DNA of 64,000 nucleotides from Pristiophorus japonicus. Lineage: Eukaryota. The notes below the pieces were generated by a model that ran no database searches, was not told the DNA's origin, and saw only the letters and a list, made by a program, of their open reading frames with translations. Positions 49,131 to 63,119 of the stretch are shown one piece after another; the first letter of the stretch is position 1; every line of letters starts with the position of its first letter. A program made the translations under genes and the position numbers. Where the stretch lies: positions 22,940,001 to 23,004,000 of the forward strand of contig NC_091999.1 in NCBI RefSeq assembly GCF_044704955.1. The letters run 5' to 3'.

Positions 49131-51388
49131 TGTAATAAAAAGAGAGACAGTGTCGAAGATAATATAAACATGCTTGGCGTATTATAAGAAGAGACAGGGT
49201 CTCGCGTGATATAAACTGAGACAGTGTCTATTGGAATATAAACAGAGACAGATTCTAGTGTAATACAAACAAAGATAGGGTCTAGTGTAATATAAACAAG
49301 GATAGTGTCAGAAAGAATATAAACAAAGATAGTGTCTGGTGTAATATAAACAGAGACATGGTCTAGTGTAATATAAACAGAGAGAGGGTCTAGTGTAATA
49401 TAAACAGAGACAGATTCTAATGTAGTATAAACAGAGACAGTGTCTAGTATATTGTAAACAGAGACAGGGTCTAGTGTATTATAAACAGAGACAGCGTCTA
49501 GTGTAATATAAACAGGGATAGTGTCTGGAAGAATATAAACAGAGACAGGGTCTTGTGTGATATGAACAGAGACCGGGTCCAGTGTAATATAAATAGAGAC
49601 AGGGTCTGGAGTAAAATAAACAGAGACAGGGTATATTATATTATAAACAGAGACAAGGTCGAGTGTAATATAAACAGGGATAGTGTCTGGAAGAATAAAA
49701 ACAGAGACAGGGTCTAGTGTAATATAAACAGAGACAGGGTCTTGTGTAATACAAACAGAGACAGGGTCTAGTGTAATATAAACAGGGATAGTGTCAGAAA
49801 GAATATAACAGAGGAAGTGTCTGGTGTAATATAAACAGAGACATGGTCTAGTGTAATATAAACAGAGACAGGGTCTAGTGTAATACAAACAGAGACAGGG
49901 TCTAGTATAACATAAACAGGGATAGTGTCAGAAAGAATATAAACAGAGGCAGTGTCTGGTGTAATATAAACAGAGATATGGTCTAGTGTAATATAAACAG
50001 AGACAGGGTCTAGTTTAATATAAACAGAGACAGGGTTGAGTCCAATATAAACAGGGATAGTGTTAAGAAGAATATAGAGAGACAGTGTCTAGTGTAATAT
50101 AAACAGAGGCAGGGTCTAGTGTATTATAAACAGAGACAGGGTCTAGTTTAATATAAACAGGGATAGTGTCTGGAAGAATATAAACAAAGACTGGGTCTAA
50201 TGTAATATAAACAGAGACAGAGTCTAGTGTAATACAAACAGAGACAGGGTCTAGTGTAATATAAACAGGGATAGTGTCAGAAAGAATATAAACAGTGGCA
50301 GTGTCTGGTGTAATATAAACAGAGACATGGTCTAGTGTAACAAAAACAGAGACAGGGTCTAGTTTAATATAAGCAGAGACAGGGTCGAGTCCAATATAAA
50401 CAGGGATAGCGTTAAGAAGAATATAGTCACAGACAGTGTCTAGTGTAATATAAACAGAGACAGGGTCTAGTTTAATATAAACGGAGACAGGGTCTAGTGT
50501 AATATGAAGAGAGACAGGGTCTAGTGTAAAATAAACAGAGACAGGAGCTAGTTTAATATAAACAGAGACAGGGTCCAGTATAATATGAACTGGAAGAGGG
50601 TCTAGTGTAATGTAAACAGAGGCAGGGTCTAGTGTAATATAAACAGAGACAGTGTCTAGTACAATATAAACAGAGACAGGGTCTAGTGTAATATAAACAG
50701 AGACAGAGTCTAGTGTAATATAAACAGGGATAGTGTCTGGAACAATATAAACAGAGACAGGGTCTAGTGTAATATAAGCAGAGACAGGGTCTAGTTTAAT
50801 ATAAACAGAAACATGGTCCAGTGTAATATAAACAGAGACAGGGTCTAGTCGAATATAAACAGAGACAGGGTCTAGACTAATATAAACAGAGACAGTCTCT
50901 AGTGTAATATGAATTGGGAGTGGGTCTCATGTAATGTAAACAGAGGCAGGGTCTAGTGAAATATAAACAGAGACAGGGTCTAGTACAATATAAACAGAGA
51001 CAGTGTCTAGTGTAATATAAACTGGGACAGGGTCTAGTGTAATATAAACAGAGACAGGGTCCTGTGTAATAAAAACAGAGACAGAGCCTGCTGTAATATA
51101 AACAGAGGCAGGATCTAGTGCAATATAAACTGGGACAGGGTCCAGTATAATATAAACACCGACAGGGTCCATTATAATATAAACAGAGACAGGGTCGAGA
51201 CTAATATAAAAAGAGACAGTGTCTAGTGTAATATAAACTGGGACAGAGTCTAGTGCAATATAAACAGAGACAGGGTCTGGTACAATATAAACAGAGACAG
51301 GGACACGGGTAATATAAACAGAGACAGGGTCTCGTGTAATATTAACAGGGACAGGGTCTTAAGAGAGCCAGGTTCTAGTGTAATATTA
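49131..51388 (+). repeat. 27-bp minisatellite array (gtgtaatataaacagagacagggtcta)n
   Basis: Direct reading. The reverse-strand ORFs repeat the 9-aa YITLDPVSV. Confidence 0.97.
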
Positions 51389-51492
51389 GATAGAAGTACA
51401 GATAGATGGATAGAAGTACGAATCGACGGACGGACGGAGAGACGAATGGACCGACCGACCGAACGACAGACAGATAGACAGTCAGACAGACA
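51389..51492. repeat. Mixed GATA/GACG/GACC/GACA tetranucleotide tract
   Basis: Direct reading of the sequence. Confidence 0.85.
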
Positions 51493-51549
51493 TGAAGATT
51501 CGCATGGCTGGAATGTTACCATCAAATTATTCCAGGCATTCTATATGTT

Positions 51550-52470
51550 TAAATTACTCTGGACCCTGTTTAATTATAACTACACTCGATCATCTCTCTT
51601 TTCGAATTGCACAAGGCCCTGTCTCAGTTATTACTGCACAAGTCTCGGGATCAATTTTATTACTGTGGATACTGTCTCAGTTACACTGCACTAGACCGTG
51701 TCTCTGTTTATATTATGCTCGGCTCTGTATCAGTTATCACAGTACTGGACCCTCCGTTATAATACATTAGACCCATTCTCAGTTACTACTGAACTAGACG
51801 CTGTCTCTGTTTATATGACCGTACACCATGTTTCTGTCAATATTTCACTAGTTCCTGTCTCTCTTTATATTACACTCGATATGTCTCCGTTTATATTGCA
51901 CTAGAAAATGTCAATGTTTCTACTACAATAGCTCATGTATTAGTTAGTATTAGAGCACGTTATCCTTTGTTATATTATGTTGGACCCTGTCACTATTTAT
52001 ATTATACTATCCCCTGTCTCTTTATAATAGATTGGTCCTGTCTCTGGTTATATTACACTAGACCCTGTCTCTATTTATATTACACTCGACCCTGTCTCTA
52101 TTTATATTACACTAGGCCCTGTCTCTGTTTATATTATACTAGACTCTGTATTTTTTACATTACACTAGACACTGTCTCTGTTTATATTACACTAGACACT
52201 GTCTCTGTTTATAGTACACTAGACCCTGCAATTTTTATATTACACTAGATATCGTCTCTGTTTATATTACACTAGCCCCTTTATTTTCTATATTACACTA
52301 GACACTGTCTCTGTTTATATTACACTAGGCCCTGTCTCTGTTTATATTACACTAGACGCTGTGTCTTTATATTTTACACTGGTCCCTGTCATTGTAGATA
52401 TTACACTATATCCTCTCTCTGTCTATGTTACACTTGGACGTGTCTCGGTTATTACTGCACTAGACCCTGG
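51550..52470 (-). repeat. Inverted, more degenerate array of the same 27-bp minisatellite
   Basis: Units of tagaccctgtctctgtttatattacac. Confidence 0.92.
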
Positions 52471-54696: not shown

Positions 54697-54812
54697 ATTA
54701 CTGCACTAGACCCTGTCTCTGCTGAGATTACACTAGACCCTGTCCCTACTTACATTGCACTAGACCCTGTCTCTGTTTACATTACACGAGACCCTGTCTC
54801 TATTTATATTAC
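54697..54812 (-). repeat. Outlying copies (~4) of the 27-bp minisatellite
   Basis: cactagaccctgtctct units. Confidence 0.85.
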
Positions 54813-54814
54813 AG

Positions 54815-56489: not shown

Positions 56490-56709
56490 CAGTCGAGGAG
56501 GCGGGAGCTCGGAGCAGCGCGAGTCCGGGGTCGGCGAGAGGCGTACCGGTGCAGCTACAGGGAGAAGGCAAAAAAACAAAGGTGACGTCACAGCCTAGGG
56601 GGTAAGTGATTGGCTGGTGATTGGTGAGTAGTTTTTCTTTTACTTCTTATATTGGTCAGTAACTTTTAACATTGTTATTACCAGTTTAAGTGTATCTAAG
56701 GGTTAAGTC

Positions 56710-57657
56710 ATGGCAGGAGAGCTCGGTCGGGTGTTATGCTCCTCCTGTACCATGTGGGAACTCAGGGACGCTTCCGGTGTCCCTGACGACCACGTGTGTG
56801 AGAAGTGTATCCGCCTCCAGCTCCTGACGGTCCGCGTTGCGGAATTGGAGCTGAGGGTGGATTCACTCTGGAGCATCCACGATGCTGAGAATGACGTGAG
56901 TATCACGTGTAGTGAGTTGGTCTTACCGCAGGGAAAGGGTCCACAGCCAGATAGGGAATGGAAGACCAACAGGAAGAGTAGAGCAAGGAAGGTAGTGCAG
57001 GGGTCCCCTGCGGTCATCCCCCTGCAAAACAGATACACCGCTTTGGGTACTGTTGAGGGGAATGACTCATCAGGGGAGGGCAGCAGCAGCCAAGTTCATG
57101 GCACCGTGGCTGGCTCTGCTGCACAGGAGGGCAAGAAAAAGAGTGGGAGAGCGATAGTGATAGGGGATTCAATTGTGAGGGGAATAGATAGGCGTTTCTG
57201 CGGCCGCAACCGAGACTCCAGGATGGTATGTTGCCTCCCTGGTGCAAGGGTCAAGGATGTCTCGGAGCGGGTGCAGGACATTCTGAAATGGGAGGGAGAA
57301 CAGCCAGTTGTCGTGGTGCACATTGGTACCAACGACATAGGCAAAAAAAGGGATGAGGTCCTACGAAACGAATTTAAGGAGCTAGGAGCTAAATTAAAAA
57401 GTAGGACCTCAAAAGTAGTAATCTCGGGATTGCTACCAGTGCCACGTGATAGTCAGAGTAGGAATCGCAGGATAGCGCAGATGAATACGTGGCTTGAGCA
57501 GTGGTGCAGCAGGGAGGGATTCAAATTCCTGGGGCATTGGGACCGGTTCTGGGGGAGGTGGGACCAGTACAAACCGGACGGTCTGCACCTGGGAAGGACT
57601 GGAACCAATGTCCTAGGGGGAGTGTTTGCTAGTGCTGTTGGGGAGGATTTAAACTAA
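56710..57657 (+). CDS. CR1 ORF1p (zinc finger/leucine zipper plus SGNH esterase-like domain), 315 aa
   Basis: CSSC…HVCEKC, heptad leucines, and IVIGDSIVR, HIGTND and DGLHL motifs. Confidence 0.93.
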   Translation: MAGELGRVLCSSCTMWELRDASGVPDDHVCEKCIRLQLLTVRVAELELRVDSLWSIHDAENDVSITCSELVLPQGKGPQPDREWKTNRKSRARKVVQGSPAVIPLQNRYTALGTVEGNDSSGEGSSSQVHGTVAGSAAQEGKKKSGRAIVIGDSIVRGIDRRFCGRNRDSRMVCCLPGARVKDVSERVQDILKWEGEQPVVVVHIGTNDIGKKRDEVLRNEFKELGAKLKSRTSKVVISGLLPVPRDSQSRNRRIAQMNTWLEQWCSREGFKFLGHWDRFWGRWDQYKPDGLHLGRTGTNVLGGVFASAVGEDLN

Positions 57658-57734
57658 TATGGCAGGGGGATGGGAACCAATGCAGGGAGACAGAGGGAAA
57701 CAAAAAGGAGCCAAAAGCAAAAGACAGAAAGGAG

Positions 57735-60641
57735 ATGAGGAAAAGTGTAGGGCAGAGAAACCCAAGGCAAAGAACAAAAAGGGCCACTGTACAGCAAAAT
57801 TCTAAAAGGACAAAGGGTGTTAATAAAACAAGCCTGAAGGCTTTGTGTCTTAATGCAAGGAGTATCCGCAATAAGGTGGATGAATTAATTGTGCAAATAG
57901 ATGTTAACAAATATGATGTGATTGGGATTACGGAGACGTGGCTCCAGGATGATCAGGGCTGGGAACTCAACATTCAGGGGTATTCAACATTCAGGAAGGA
58001 TAGAATAAAAGGAAAAGGAGGTGGGGTAGCATTGCTGGTTAAAGAGGAGATTAATGCAATAGTTAGGAAAGACATTAGCTTGGATGATGTGGAATCTATA
58101 TGGGTAGAGCTGCAGAACACCAAAGGGCAAAAAACGTTAGTAGGAGTTGTGTACAGACCTCCAAACAATAGTAGGGATGTTGGGGAGGGCATCAAACAGG
58201 AAATTAGGGGTGCATGCAATAAAGGTGTAGCAGTTATAATGGGTGACTTTAATATGCACATAGATTGGGCTAGCCAAACTGGAAGCAATACGGTGGAGGA
58301 GGATTTCCTGGAGTGCATAAGGGATGGTTTTCTAGACCAATATGTTGAGGAACCAACTAGGGGGGAGGCCATCTTAGACTGGGTGTTGTGTAATGAGAGA
58401 GGATTAATTAGCAATCTCATTGTGCGAGGCCCCTTGGGGAAGAGTGACCATAATATGGTGGAATTCTGCATTAGGATGGAGAATGAAACAGTAATTTCAG
58501 AGACCATGGTCCAGAACTTAAAGAAGGGTAACTTTGAAGGTATGAGGCGTGAATTGGCTAGGATAGATTGGCGAATGATACTTAGGGGGTTGACTGTGGA
58601 TGGGCAATGGCAGACATTTAGAGACCGCATGGATGAAGTACAACAATTGTACATTCCTGTCTGGCGTAAAAATAAAAAGGGGAAGGTGGCTCAACCGTGG
58701 CTATCTAGGGAAATCAGGGATAGTATTAAAGCCAAGGAAGTGGCATACAAATTGGCCAGAAATAGCAGCGAACCTGGGGACTGGGAGAAATTTAGAACTC
58801 AGCAGAGGAGGACAAAGGGTTTGATTAGGACAGGGAAAATGGAGTACGAGAAGAAGCTTGCAGGGAACATTAAGGCGGATTGCAAAAGTTTCTATAGGTA
58901 TGTAAAGAGAAAAAGGTTGGTGAAGACAAACGTAGGTCCCCTGCAGTCAGAATCAGGGGAAGTCATAACGGGGAACAAAGAAATGGCGGATCAATTGAAC
59001 AAGTACTTTGGTTCGGTATTCACTAAGGAGGATACAAACAACCTTCCGGATATAAAAGGGGTCAGAGGGTCTAGTAAGGAAGAGGAACTGAGGGAAATCT
59101 TTATTAGTCGGGAAATTGTGTTGGGGAAATTGATGGGATTGAAGGCCGATAAATCCCCAGGGCCTGATGGCCTGCATCCTAGAGTACTTAAGGAGGTGGC
59201 CTTGGAAATAGCGGATGCATTGACAGTCATTGTCCAACATTCCATTGACTCTGGATCAGTTCCTATGGAGTGGAGGGTAGCCAATGTAACCCCACTTTTT
59301 AAAAAAGGAGGGAGAGAGAAAACAGGGAATTATAGACCGGTCAGCCTGACCTCAGTAGTGGGTAAAATGATGGAATCAATTATTAAAGATGTCATAGCAG
59401 TGCATCTGGAAAATGGTGACATGATAGGTCGAAGTCAGCATGGATTTGTGAAAGGGAAATCATGCTTGACAAATCTTCTGGAATTTTTTGAGGATGTTTC
59501 CAGTAAAGTGGACAAAGGAGAACCAGTTGATGTGGTATATTTGGACTTTCAGAAGGCTTTCGACAAGGTCCCACACAAGAGATTAATGTGCAAAGTTAAA
59601 GCACATGGGATTGGGGGTAGTGTGCTGACGTGGATTGAGAACTGGTTGTCAGACAGGAAGCAAAGAGTAGGAGTAAACGGGTACTTTTCAGAATGGCAGG
59701 CAGTGACTAGTGGAGTGCCGCAAGGTTCTGTGCTGGGGCCCCAGCTGTTTACATTGTACATTAATGATTTAGACGAGGGGATTAAATGCAGTATCTCCAA
59801 ATTTGCGGATGATACTAAGTTGGGTGGCAGTGTGAGCTGCGAGGAGGATGCTATTAGGCTGCAGAGTGACTTGGATAGGTTAGGTGAGTGGGCAAATGCA
59901 TGGCAGATGAAGTATAATGTGGATAAATGTGAGGTTATCCACTTTGGTGGTAAAAACAGAGAGACAGACTATTATCTGAATGGTGACAGATTAGGAAAAG
60001 GGAAGGTGCAACGAGACCTGGGTGTCATGGCACATCAGTCATTGAAGGTTGGCATGCAGGTACAGCAGGCGGTTAAGAAAGCAAATGGCATGTTGGCCTT
60101 CATAGCGAGGGGATTTGAATACAGGGGCAGGGAGGTGTTGCTACAGTTGTACAGGGCCTTGGTGAGGCCACACCTGGAGTATTGTGTACAGTTTTGGTCT
60201 CCTAACTTGAGGAAGGACATTCTTGCTATTGAGGGAGTGCAGCGAAGGTTCACCAGACTGATTCCCGGGATGGCGGGACTGACCTATCAAGAAAGATTGG
60301 ATCAATTGGGCTTGTATTCACTGGAGTTCAGAAGAATGAGAGGGGACCTCATAGAAACGTTTAAAATTCTGACGGGTTTAGACAGGTTAGATGCAGAAAG
60401 AATGTTCCCAATGTTGGGGAGGTCCAGAACCAGGGGTCACAGTCTGAGGATAAGGGGTAAGCCATTTAGGACCGAGATGAGGAGAAACTTCTTCACCCAG
60501 AGAGTGGTGAACCTGTGGAATTCTCTACCACAGAAAGTAGTTGAGGCCAATTCACTAAATATATTCAAAAGGGAGTTAGATGAAGTCCTTACTACTCGGG
60601 GGATCAAGGGTTATGGCGAGAAAGCCGGAAGGGGGTACTGA
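57735..60641 (+). CDS. CR1 ORF2p (APE endonuclease plus reverse transcriptase), 968 aa from the first ATG
   Basis: [44 protein letters not shown] and FADD motifs, with no interruptions. Confidence 0.97.
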   Translation: MRKSVGQRNPRQRTKRATVQQNSKRTKGVNKTSLKALCLNARSIRNKVDELIVQIDVNKYDVIGITETWLQDDQGWELNIQGYSTFRKDRIKGKGGGVALLVKEEINAIVRKDISLDDVESIWVELQNTKGQKTLVGVVYRPPNNSRDVGEGIKQEIRGACNKGVAVIMGDFNMHIDWASQTGSNTVEEDFLECIRDGFLDQYVEEPTRGEAILDWVLCNERGLISNLIVRGPLGKSDHNMVEFCIRMENETVISETMVQNLKKGNFEGMRRELARIDWRMILRGLTVDGQWQTFRDRMDEVQQLYIPVWRKNKKGKVAQPWLSREIRDSIKAKEVAYKLARNSSEPGDWEKFRTQQRRTKGLIRTGKMEYEKKLAGNIKADCKSFYRYVKRKRLVKTNVGPLQSESGEVITGNKEMADQLNKYFGSVFTKEDTNNLPDIKGVRGSSKEEELREIFISREIVLGKLMGLKADKSPGPDGLHPRVLKEVALEIADALTVIVQHSIDSGSVPMEWRVANVTPLFKKGGREKTGNYRPVSLTSVVGKMMESIIKDVIAVHLENGDMIGRSQHGFVKGKSCLTNLLEFFEDVSSKVDKGEPVDVVYLDFQKAFDKVPHKRLMCKVKAHGIGGSVLTWIENWLSDRKQRVGVNGYFSEWQAVTSGVPQGSVLGPQLFTLYINDLDEGIKCSISKFADDTKLGGSVSCEEDAIRLQSDLDRLGEWANAWQMKYNVDKCEVIHFGGKNRETDYYLNGDRLGKGKVQRDLGVMAHQSLKVGMQVQQAVKKANGMLAFIARGFEYRGREVLLQLYRALVRPHLEYCVQFWSPNLRKDILAIEGVQRRFTRLIPGMAGLTYQERLDQLGLYSLEFRRMRGDLIETFKILTGLDRLDAERMFPMLGRSRTRGHSLRIRGKPFRTEMRRNFFTQRVVNLWNSLPQKVVEANSLNIFKRELDEVLTTRGIKGYGEKAGRGY

Positions 60642-60741
60642 AGTTTCATGTTCAGCCATGAACTCTTTGAATGGCGGTGCAGGCTAGAAGGGCTGAATGG
60701 CCTGCTCCTGCACCTATTTTCTATGTTTCTATGTTTCTATT

Positions 60742-62196: not shown

Positions 62197-62744
62197 ATGT
62201 CTATTCCCCATGTATCAAATGACCTACCACTATTGCTCTTCCACTCTTCTTCCTTCCCTTCTGTACAGCTGAGCCACCCATGGTTCCATGGACTTGGCAC
62301 TGGCTTCACTCCCCAGAGCAACCATCATGCTCCTCATTAACCAGAACTGAAAAGCGGTTAATGAGTCAGGCGATTCCTGTCCTACATGCCAGTTCCTCCT
62401 TGTCTGTCTGACGATCTTCCATTCCCTCTATGCCTGCACACTTTTAAGCTGCTGGGTGACTACCTCCTGAAATACGTTATCCTCGAAGCTCTCAGCCCCG
62501 CGGATAGACTGCATTGACGCTAGCAACTGCTCAAGCTCCGAAACCTGGTGTTCAAAATGCACCCCTATTATAAGGAATCTATATGGGTAGAGCTGCAGAA
62601 CACCAAAGGACAATACACGTTAGTGGGAGTTGTGTAGCGACATCCAGACAGTAGTAGTGATGTTGGGGAGGGCATCAAACAGGCCATTAGGGAGCTGGCG
62701 ACACTTCCCGCAACGTGGTCATCCAGATGTTCCCACATGGCCCA

Positions 62745-63062
62745 GTATGTGTATTCCATGGGACTGTGCTGCCTGACCAGGATGTACATTCCATGGGACG
62801 GTGCTGCCTGCCCAGGATGTACATTCCATGGGACTGAGCTGCCTGCCCAGGATGTACATTCCATGGGACTGAGCTGCCTGCCCAGGATGTGCATTCCATG
62901 GGACTGAGCTGCCTGCCCAGGATGTGCATTCCGTGGGATTGAGCTTCCCTGCCCAGGATGTACATTCCATGGGACTGAGCTGCCTGCCCAGGATGTGCAT
63001 TCCATGGGACTGAGCTGCCTGCCCAGGATGTGCATTCCAACCGACTGTGCTGCCTGCCCAAG
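62745..63062. repeat. 35-bp minisatellite (~9 copies)
   Basis: Unit ccatgggactgagctgcctgcccaggatgtacatt starting at 62756, 62791, 62826 and onward. Confidence 0.95.
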
Positions 63063-63119
63063 ATATAAATTCTCTGCAGACAGTTCTAGTTTCTCTGGAA
63101 CATTCTTTACTCTCTTGCT

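Follow-up and report, generated by a model that had tools for sequence, protein, structure and literature searches.

How long interspersed elements (LINEs) translate their second open reading frame (ORF2) is an old open question that has been worked out for only a few of them. Mammalian L1 and silkworm SART1, which face the same problem of translating ORF2 from a bicistronic element, both make free ORF2 protein (ORF2p), L1 by reinitiation across a 63-nt spacer and SART1 through a stop-start overlap (PMC5972666; here and below, statements on published work refer to excerpts of the papers cited unless a main text is named). A −1 frameshift was given as a requirement for ORF2 of Dictyostelium TRE5-A and TRE3-A in a figure legend of a review (PMC5911963); these are non-long-terminal-repeat (non-LTR) retrotransposons with an apurinic/apyrimidinic endonuclease (APE), and differ from CR1 elements in clade and host, no esterase ORF1 being described in the excerpts of that review. 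In Drosophila R1B, also of another clade, ORF1 and ORF2 overlap by 14–59 bp in the −1 frame, with no slippery site or mechanism given in the excerpts of the paper (PMC2718515). The present analysis concerns a CR1 copy in a stretch of 64,000 nt of the Pristiophorus japonicus genome (the window; contig NC_091999.1, positions 22,940,001 to 23,004,000), whose ORF1 ends on the slippery heptamer U_UUA_AAC. A minority of ribosomes probably slips by −1 at this heptamer, which would yield an ORF1-ORF2 fusion, because its layout persists in very distant relatives or has another slippery sequence in its place there. The CR1 junction is a real feature, likely a conserved −1 frameshift signal of the known viral type minus the usual downstream structure.

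The element itself is an intact, young and ordinary esterase-type CR1 LINE, as indicated by its domains, its 8-bp 3' repeat, its near-identical copies and its ORF1 relatives, the closest named ones being those of sharks and rays (Table 1). ORF1 matched the esterase family PF13472 (E 3.6e-14) and, in the PDB, solely chain 4C1B, "ORF1-encoded protein" (E 3.6e-30), while ORF2 matched PF03372 (APE endonuclease, E 1.1e-14) and PF00078 (reverse transcriptase, RT, E 3.2e-33). CR1 elements terminate in an 8-bp repeat without poly-A, and the window copy likewise ends in a short tandem repeat with no poly-A. It sits as an insertion within an older LINE fragment of the minus strand. The 40 best-scored copies in the 5.9-Gb genome were 95–100% identical to it across the junction. 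The same SGNH ORF1, APE and RT in ORF2 and 8-bp 3' repeat characterize the canonical esterase CR1 LINEs of vertebrates (PMC13343379) and the ZfL2-1 esterase (PMC3905857; 4C1B by sequence match), and by eye the end of ORF1 and the junction nearly matched the published ScyCan_CR1-1a consensus.

Table 1. Parts of the CR1 copy and of its ORF1-ORF2 junction, in window coordinates.
Feature	Position	Strand	Remarks
Full-length young CR1 LINE copy	56490..60740 (5' end approximate)	+	ORFs, domains, 3' repeat, near-identical copies; ends read directly
ORF1, 315 aa	56710..57657	+	Cys-rich N-terminal part (by eye); SGNH/GDSL esterase C-terminal, ~57160-57603; end x-L-N-stop
ORF2 frame, 1002 codons between stops	57633..60641	+	APE ~57876-58451; reverse transcriptase ~59310-59969
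Slippery heptamer U_UUA_AAC, predicted −1 shift site	57648..57654	+	Occupies the final two ORF1 codons
ORF1 stop UAA, candidate pause	57655..57657	+	Adjoins the heptamer
Open −1 frame linker, 68 codons, Lys/Arg-rich	57648..57851	+	From heptamer to conserved Asn of endonuclease
Conserved G-tract GGGGG-AT-GGG, candidate stimulator	57665..57674	+	Starts 10 nt past the heptamer; codes G-D-G in the −1 frame
Third and fourth G-runs	57685..57697	+	Family-specific
In-frame AUG, possible reinitiation start in family A only	57735..57737	+	In 116/137 family A copies
3' terminal 8-bp microsatellite, CTATGTTT x3.5	60714..60740	+	Tandem repeat found at the element end

As the first-pass annotation of this DNA had noted, ORF1 ends GAG GAT TTA AAC TAA, which places the heptamer in the zero-frame X_XXY_YYZ phase that defines a −1 shift site (PMC3542737). 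The downstream ORF lies in the −1 frame and is open from the shift site: this frame opens after a TAG at 57630–57632, overlaps the end of ORF1 by 25 nt and continues to 60641, and its first in-frame AUG lies 78 nt past the ORF1 stop. In contrast to L1 and SART1, the two ORFs overlap, and the ORF1 stop does not share bases with a start codon. Within the 313 codon pairs of ORF1 there was no further canonical heptamer in phase, and only 2 were found in the 1000 pairs of ORF2, so that the position of one on the last two codons is unlikely to be due to chance. The stop-free run of 29 codons to the ATG at 57735, also pointed out in the annotation, was confirmed, yet it is near chance by itself: the linker is purine-rich, and 2977 of 5000 dinucleotide shuffles of 57658–57734 (60%) were open as well, which makes this opening uninformative alone. 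The opening through to the endonuclease was equalled in 91 of 2000 shuffles. A second in-phase heptamer, G_GGA_AAC at 57695–57701, stands in the ORF2 frame 47 nt past the first; a shift there would exit ORF2, and older subfamilies differ at this place.

The junction was then compared with published consensus sequences and with the ends of ORF1 proteins from other species. A motif search in Supplementary Table 2 of PMC13343379 (first 400 letters per cell, misses uncounted) gave 20 matches to the heptamer plus stop, of which 17 lay, by eye, at the end of ORF1 and shared heptamer and stop with the window copy; the entries read as alligator, crocodile, bullfrog, coelacanth, bowfin, elephant shark, rays, catshark, dogfish and one teleost Crack element. 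Among proteins, 49 of the 74 best ORF1 homologues ended 20–32 residues past the His motif of the esterase, and 47 of these 49 ended in x-L-N (36–96% identity), with one ending in I-N and one being three residues longer. The named x-L-N members came from sharks, rays, a chimaera, frogs, a snake, a lizard and a turtle. Twelve different residues occurred at x, and in 102 of 103 stored ends its codon can end in U, the exception being the G variant of the window's own family (family A, see below).

The spread of slippery-compatible ends was wider than L-N. When 150 representatives at 50% identity were taken and an end filter was applied (101 passed; the 49 dropped included the E-L-N protein), the terminal dipeptide was compatible with XXY_YYZ in 61 of the 101 (48 L-N, 11 G-N and 2 K-N) vs. 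a background of 4.9%, and six further representatives had such a dipeptide one residue earlier. Within the N-ending representatives, L, G or K preceded N in 61 of 66 vs. 23% in the background. A quick tree was built from the esterase domain alone, with the tail left off (101 rows, four of them metagenomic loci), and in it G-N and K-N ends were intermixed within one clade with a support of 99. For the K-N ends, the predicted heptamer is A_AAA_AAC. A metagenome scan targeted at the G-N group returned five loci (L141–L145), four of which reached the junction, L143 ending before it. The junctions read G_GGA_AAC_UAG in L141 and L142, G_GGA_AAC_UAC_UAG in L144 and G_AAU_UUU_UAG in L145. From the heptamer, the −1 frame was open to the end of the locus in L141 (502 codons) and L145 (482 codons), running through an endonuclease with 33 and 30% identity to the window ORF2, respectively; the first Met of L145 was codon 159, within the endonuclease. 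L142 was open for its 11 readable codons, and the contig of L144 ends just past the stop. The site is hence conserved beyond protein need: residues change according to the slippery rule, while phase, stop and −1 register stay constant. This swap between slippery classes is the strongest evidence for −1 frameshifting that the sequences offer.

The ending x-L-N might instead be kept for the fold or a binding function of the C-terminus of the ORF1 protein (ORF1p), the heptamer being a by-product and ORF2 being reached by AUG-independent reinitiation in all families. We consider this very unlikely. L314 and N315 were indeed invariant, though the alignment was seeded with L-N ending proteins, and for L1 a start of ORF2 is possible without a fixed AUG (PMC5009743). 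Selection on the protein would not, however, fix the codons: in the window element TTA accounts for 16 of 113 Leu codons and AAC for 27 of 59 Asn codons, yet TTA AAC was kept in the consensus sequences from shark to alligator and coelacanth. Nor does it explain the replacement of L by G or K (GGG-AAA-C in DNA) or the constraint on the third base of the preceding codon, and the teleost esterase ORF1 relatives, which lack the slippery codons, end in ...RTI without L-N.

Five database proteins run from the ORF1 tail into F-K-L and onward, two of them reaching the endonuclease. They are most simply explained as copies with a one-base upstream indel, and show an open −1 frame in rays as well, not a shift by ribosomes. 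In five other ORF1 relatives (P0165, P0178, P0196, P0202 and P0238) the end is F-F-x or F-L-G-R-V; shift sites of the form U_UUU_UUY or U_UUU_UUA, placed slightly ahead of the stop by some codons, would match these ends. Scans of viral contigs with three alignments returned nothing, and a scan of prokaryote genomes gave one weak, unrelated-looking locus that was not used.

Within the P. japonicus genome, 211 distinct loci were collected, 30 by likeness to the window, 110 out of 150 rows returned by a search with the Pfam esterase profile, which was blind to the junction, and the rest by protein searches; 43 additional loci were added for the third family described below. Because the loci stem from mixed searches, the ratios are not genome-wide frequencies. 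Searches of the same genome with P0012, P0095 and P0086 gave families A and C again, and 20 loci matched by a P0076 search stand outside the copy counts. In family A, to which the window copy belongs (n = 137), positions 2–7 of the heptamer were kept in 135–137 of the copies per column and TAA followed directly in 132. The endonuclease was in the −1 register in 111 of 136 copies, and 104 of these 111 were open from the heptamer, whereas the two remaining frames were open in only 2 and 0 copies. Family B, comprising 49 older copies in two subfamilies with linkers of 162 and 171 nt, had TTTAAAC in 39 and TAG as the following stop in 41 of the 49; its endonuclease was in the −1 register in 26 of 46 (p 0.001), and 13 of these 26 were fully open. 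Family C is the oldest, with ~55% ORF1 identity to family A over the stretch compared. Here, 66 of 68 copies could be anchored, TTTAAAC was in phase in 45 of the 66 and no site was found in 11, and 53 of the 55 copies with a site had TAA as the following stop. The first-pass annotation had proposed conservation of the heptamer as a check, and what is conserved is its phase, the adjacent stop and the −1 register, while the exact heptamer varies. In a subfamily of eight family A copies with a linker of 216 nt (among them L046, L092, L095, L116, L117 and L140), the end of the linker is replaced, being 12 nt longer and in frame, and the endonuclease starts differently; this subfamily is perhaps a recombinant between families.

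What would make ribosomes pause at the heptamer was addressed through the sequence downstream of it. A tract of the form G4+/N1-4/GGG, mostly 8–12 nt past the heptamer, was present in 131 of 137 copies of family A, 35 of 49 of family B and 42 of 68 of family C, as well as in L141 and L142 and not in L145; only 1.3% of the positions of the element passed the same test. By eye, a G4+ run also followed the stop in ~13 of the 17 published junctions, the alligator entries having the identical GGGGG-AT-GGG. The tract may act as RNA, either as a two-tier quadruplex or as a protein-binding G-tract, or may encode G-D/E-G. The annotation had gone further and proposed a four-tract RNA G-quadruplex as stimulator. 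Its general premise agrees with synthetic constructs, in which G-quadruplexes did stimulate −1 frameshifting (PMC3919603), and the four G-runs are indeed present (57665–69, 57672–74, 57685–87 and 57695–97). As a conserved stimulator the quadruplex was rejected: four G3 runs were found in 119 of 135 family A copies, in 1 of 46 in family B, in 15 of 65 in family C and in neither of the two long metagenomic loci. With a spacer of 10 nt and long loops (2, 10 and 7 nt), the window runs also depart from the synthetic optimum, a spacer of 6–8 nt with an efficiency that follows quadruplex stability (PMC3919603). Their G4Hunter score of 1.4 was unexceptional for an element as G-rich as this one, since six other peaks in it were equal or higher; there was no G3-N1-7 motif and two more G3-N1-12 motifs lay within ORF1. 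A review from 2016 knew of no natural use of G-quadruplex frameshifting (PMC5009743).

A conventional 3' structure fared no better. Fold z-scores of −1.0 to −1.35 were not above shuffles (ViennaRNA, which is blind to pseudoknots), so that a local hairpin was rejected too; the linker has few pyrimidines and no strong or shared downstream pairing partner. Upstream, ORF1 positions 57016–57026 form a perfect 11-nt complement of 57662–57672 (−28.9 kcal/mol, the best in the element, ~640 nt away). Among upstream partners this stretch ranked first in 18 of 30 family A copies. In family C the position was shared by 14 of 21 copies, with a weaker pairing and no clear compensatory change, whereas the best partner in family B lay elsewhere. 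No covariation was evident. The ORF1 stretch is pyrimidine-rich for coding reasons, which leaves the long-range pairing as an unproven lead.

Besides the departures of the G-runs from a conserved quadruplex and the absence of a fold above shuffles, several observations weigh against frameshifting at this junction. The heptamer of family A was GTTAAAC in 66 copies, TTTAAAC in 62, ATTAAAC in four and another sequence in five, and that of L145 breaks XXX at its first base. A slippery end was lacking in 40 of the 101 representatives, among them every row of two clades (8 and 11 rows), so that not all esterase LINEs carry the signal, and since rows are related, the counts overstate independence. 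In family C, the −1 register to a nearby anchor was found in 23 of 48 copies (mode 27 nt; p 0.025), a noisy signal blurred by G-run indels, and an in-frame AUG occurred further on in 26 of 49. Variants shared between copies in the linker comprised 4 synonymous, 14 non-synonymous and 0 stop changes in the −1 frame, with no synonymous excess in any frame; the linker therefore appears free in sequence, and coding before the AUG is not evident by this test. Moreover, translation of L1 ORF2 is believed not to depend on its AUG (PMC5009743), so that a missing AUG is no proof of a frameshift.

One rival proposal is that an ancestral shift signal has become weak or vestigial in family A and that ORF2p is made there mainly by reinitiation, at the AUG at 57735 or at the earlier one of older subfamilies, in the manner put forward for L1 or SART1. 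Roughly every second family A copy sampled carries the weaker G_UUA_AAC, and 130 of 137 have an in-frame AUG at either codon 29 or codon 19: that at 57735 in 116 copies and one ten codons earlier in 19, mostly older, with neither in seven, the older AUG having been lost as the newer one appeared. In addition, the AUG at 57735 overlaps (as AUGA) the UGA at the end of a mini-ORF of 22 codons, which lies in the frame of ORF1 (57670–57738, from an AUG at 57670). Reinitiation may accordingly occur in family A, where the case for it is strongest, and family B or L145 illustrates the shift site more cleanly than the window copy does. As the main route it is nonetheless unlikely. UUA_AAC and the stop are fixed in family A, and the sole common change, a GUU first codon, is tolerated at the natural shift site of equine arteritis virus (PMC3542737). 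The copies with the canonical U are the youngest (median distance to the three nearest copies of 0.9%, vs. 2.8% and 5.1–5.7% in the main G-type groups), the family has kept the G-tract, Met codons arise easily in a linker rich in K, R and E, and the mini-ORF is not kept in family B, where it closes after 3 codons. The place of the ORF2 AUG differs among the families: family B has no Met in 16 of 26 copies and no Met place common to more than two, and L145 lacks an early one as well, so that a conserved start near the ORF1 stop, of the SART1 or L1 type, was not found.

The motif could also be some other nucleic-acid signal, for termination control, RNA packaging, splicing or transcription, or the fusion could arise by RNA processing. 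The G-tract is conserved at the nucleotide level, and the dogfish consensus sequences SquAca_CR1-18 and SquAca_CR1-3 (PMC13343379, Supplementary Table 2) carry look-alikes of TTTAAACTA and GGGAAACTA in the 5' untranslated region, upstream of ORF1, of which that of TTTAAACTA would fit such a role. Against this stands that the signal is locked to the codon phase of ORF1 and ORF2 to the −1 frame, with swaps confined to slippery classes. No joint at the junction was among those listed for contigs (of unknown kind) from four public runs, a weak test with 7 further joints unlisted, and none of the public sequencing runs listed as containing the sequence was an RNA run. Overall, this explanation has only the slightest chance of being correct.

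Under the favored explanation, −1 frameshifting, most ribosomes would terminate and release free ORF1p, while a minority would re-pair one base back at U_UUA_AAC and go on into ORF2, either by a tandem slip of tRNA-Leu and tRNA-Asn or by slippage in the P site with the stop waiting in the A site. Slow termination at the adjacent stop codon, together with the G-tract 8–12 nt downstream, would cause the pause in place of a stem-loop, pseudoknot or four-tract quadruplex, and such a pause would explain the lax first base of the heptamer, which is G in L145 and in around half of the family A copies sampled. In pea enation mosaic virus, frameshifting is described as requiring a stop located 3 nt past the shift site (PMC5009743). 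Reading would then continue through the free, basic linker into the endonuclease and RT, giving an esterase-endonuclease-RT fusion of ~1,310 residues beside free ORF1p. A low rate of shifting would keep the ORF1p:ORF2p ratio high and couple ORF2p to the RNA that encodes it, and in family A the in-frame AUG may add reinitiation as a second route. With viral −1 sites the junction shares the X_XXY_YYZ phase, the upstream structural gene, the polymerase in the −1 frame, the tolerated GUU and the nearby stop; unlike them, it has no stem-loop or pseudoknot 5–9 nt downstream, having instead a purine-rich linker with a short G-tract, and its host is a non-LTR retrotransposon. Of what the annotation had proposed, the gag-pol-like fusion by a −1 shift thus draws support from the conservation of the site and the swaps between slippery classes, and the four-tract quadruplex as its stimulator does not.

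If a conserved −1 shift is true, the RT of these elements would be made fused to a membrane-binding esterase, the ORF1p:ORF2p ratio would be set in a retrovirus-like manner, CR1 libraries would need a correction of where they annotate the ORF2 start, and a natural shift site would exist whose stimulator is apparently no stem-loop or pseudoknot. A wider and distinctly more tentative proposal, which we would not yet favor, is that CR1 elements across jawed vertebrates, with distant esterase-LINE relatives, have for hundreds of millions of years made a Gag-Pol-like esterase-endonuclease-RT fusion by a −1 shift without a folded stem or pseudoknot, driven by the adjacent stop and a short G-tract. 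The retrotransposon that dominates in most vertebrates would then harbor a natural frameshift stimulator of a new kind. An earlier suggestion of CR1 frameshifting from ORF overlap is possible, and may stand in early CR1 papers on chicken, turtle, pufferfish and mosquito. A full-text literature search, with subscription papers mostly beyond reach, found no published description of a slip site in CR1. The main text of the 2026 survey of the CR1 group, according to which these are the dominant retrotransposons in most vertebrates and make up 22–34% of shark and ray genomes, mentions no frameshift, slippery site, overlap or start codon (PMC13343379), the word frameshift is absent from the main text of the esterase structure paper (PMC3905857), and the excerpts of PMC1965478, PMC4255032, PMC5006619 and PMC5443660 hold nothing on the ORF1-ORF2 junction of CR1.

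Two shark-type CR1 ORF1 proteins, P0007 and P0108, are filed under Pseudomonas aeruginosa and Proteus mirabilis, respectively, and are likely host DNA contamination of bacterial assemblies. Elsewhere in the window, a GC-rich stretch (~0.6) at ~3800–31000 contains several broken RT and zf-RVT ORFs on the minus strand and is probably a stack of another LINE type. Arrays of a 27-bp minisatellite occur in both orientations (49179–52469 and 54702–54813), and a 35-bp array at 62740–63072 lies inside a minus-strand CR1 fragment.

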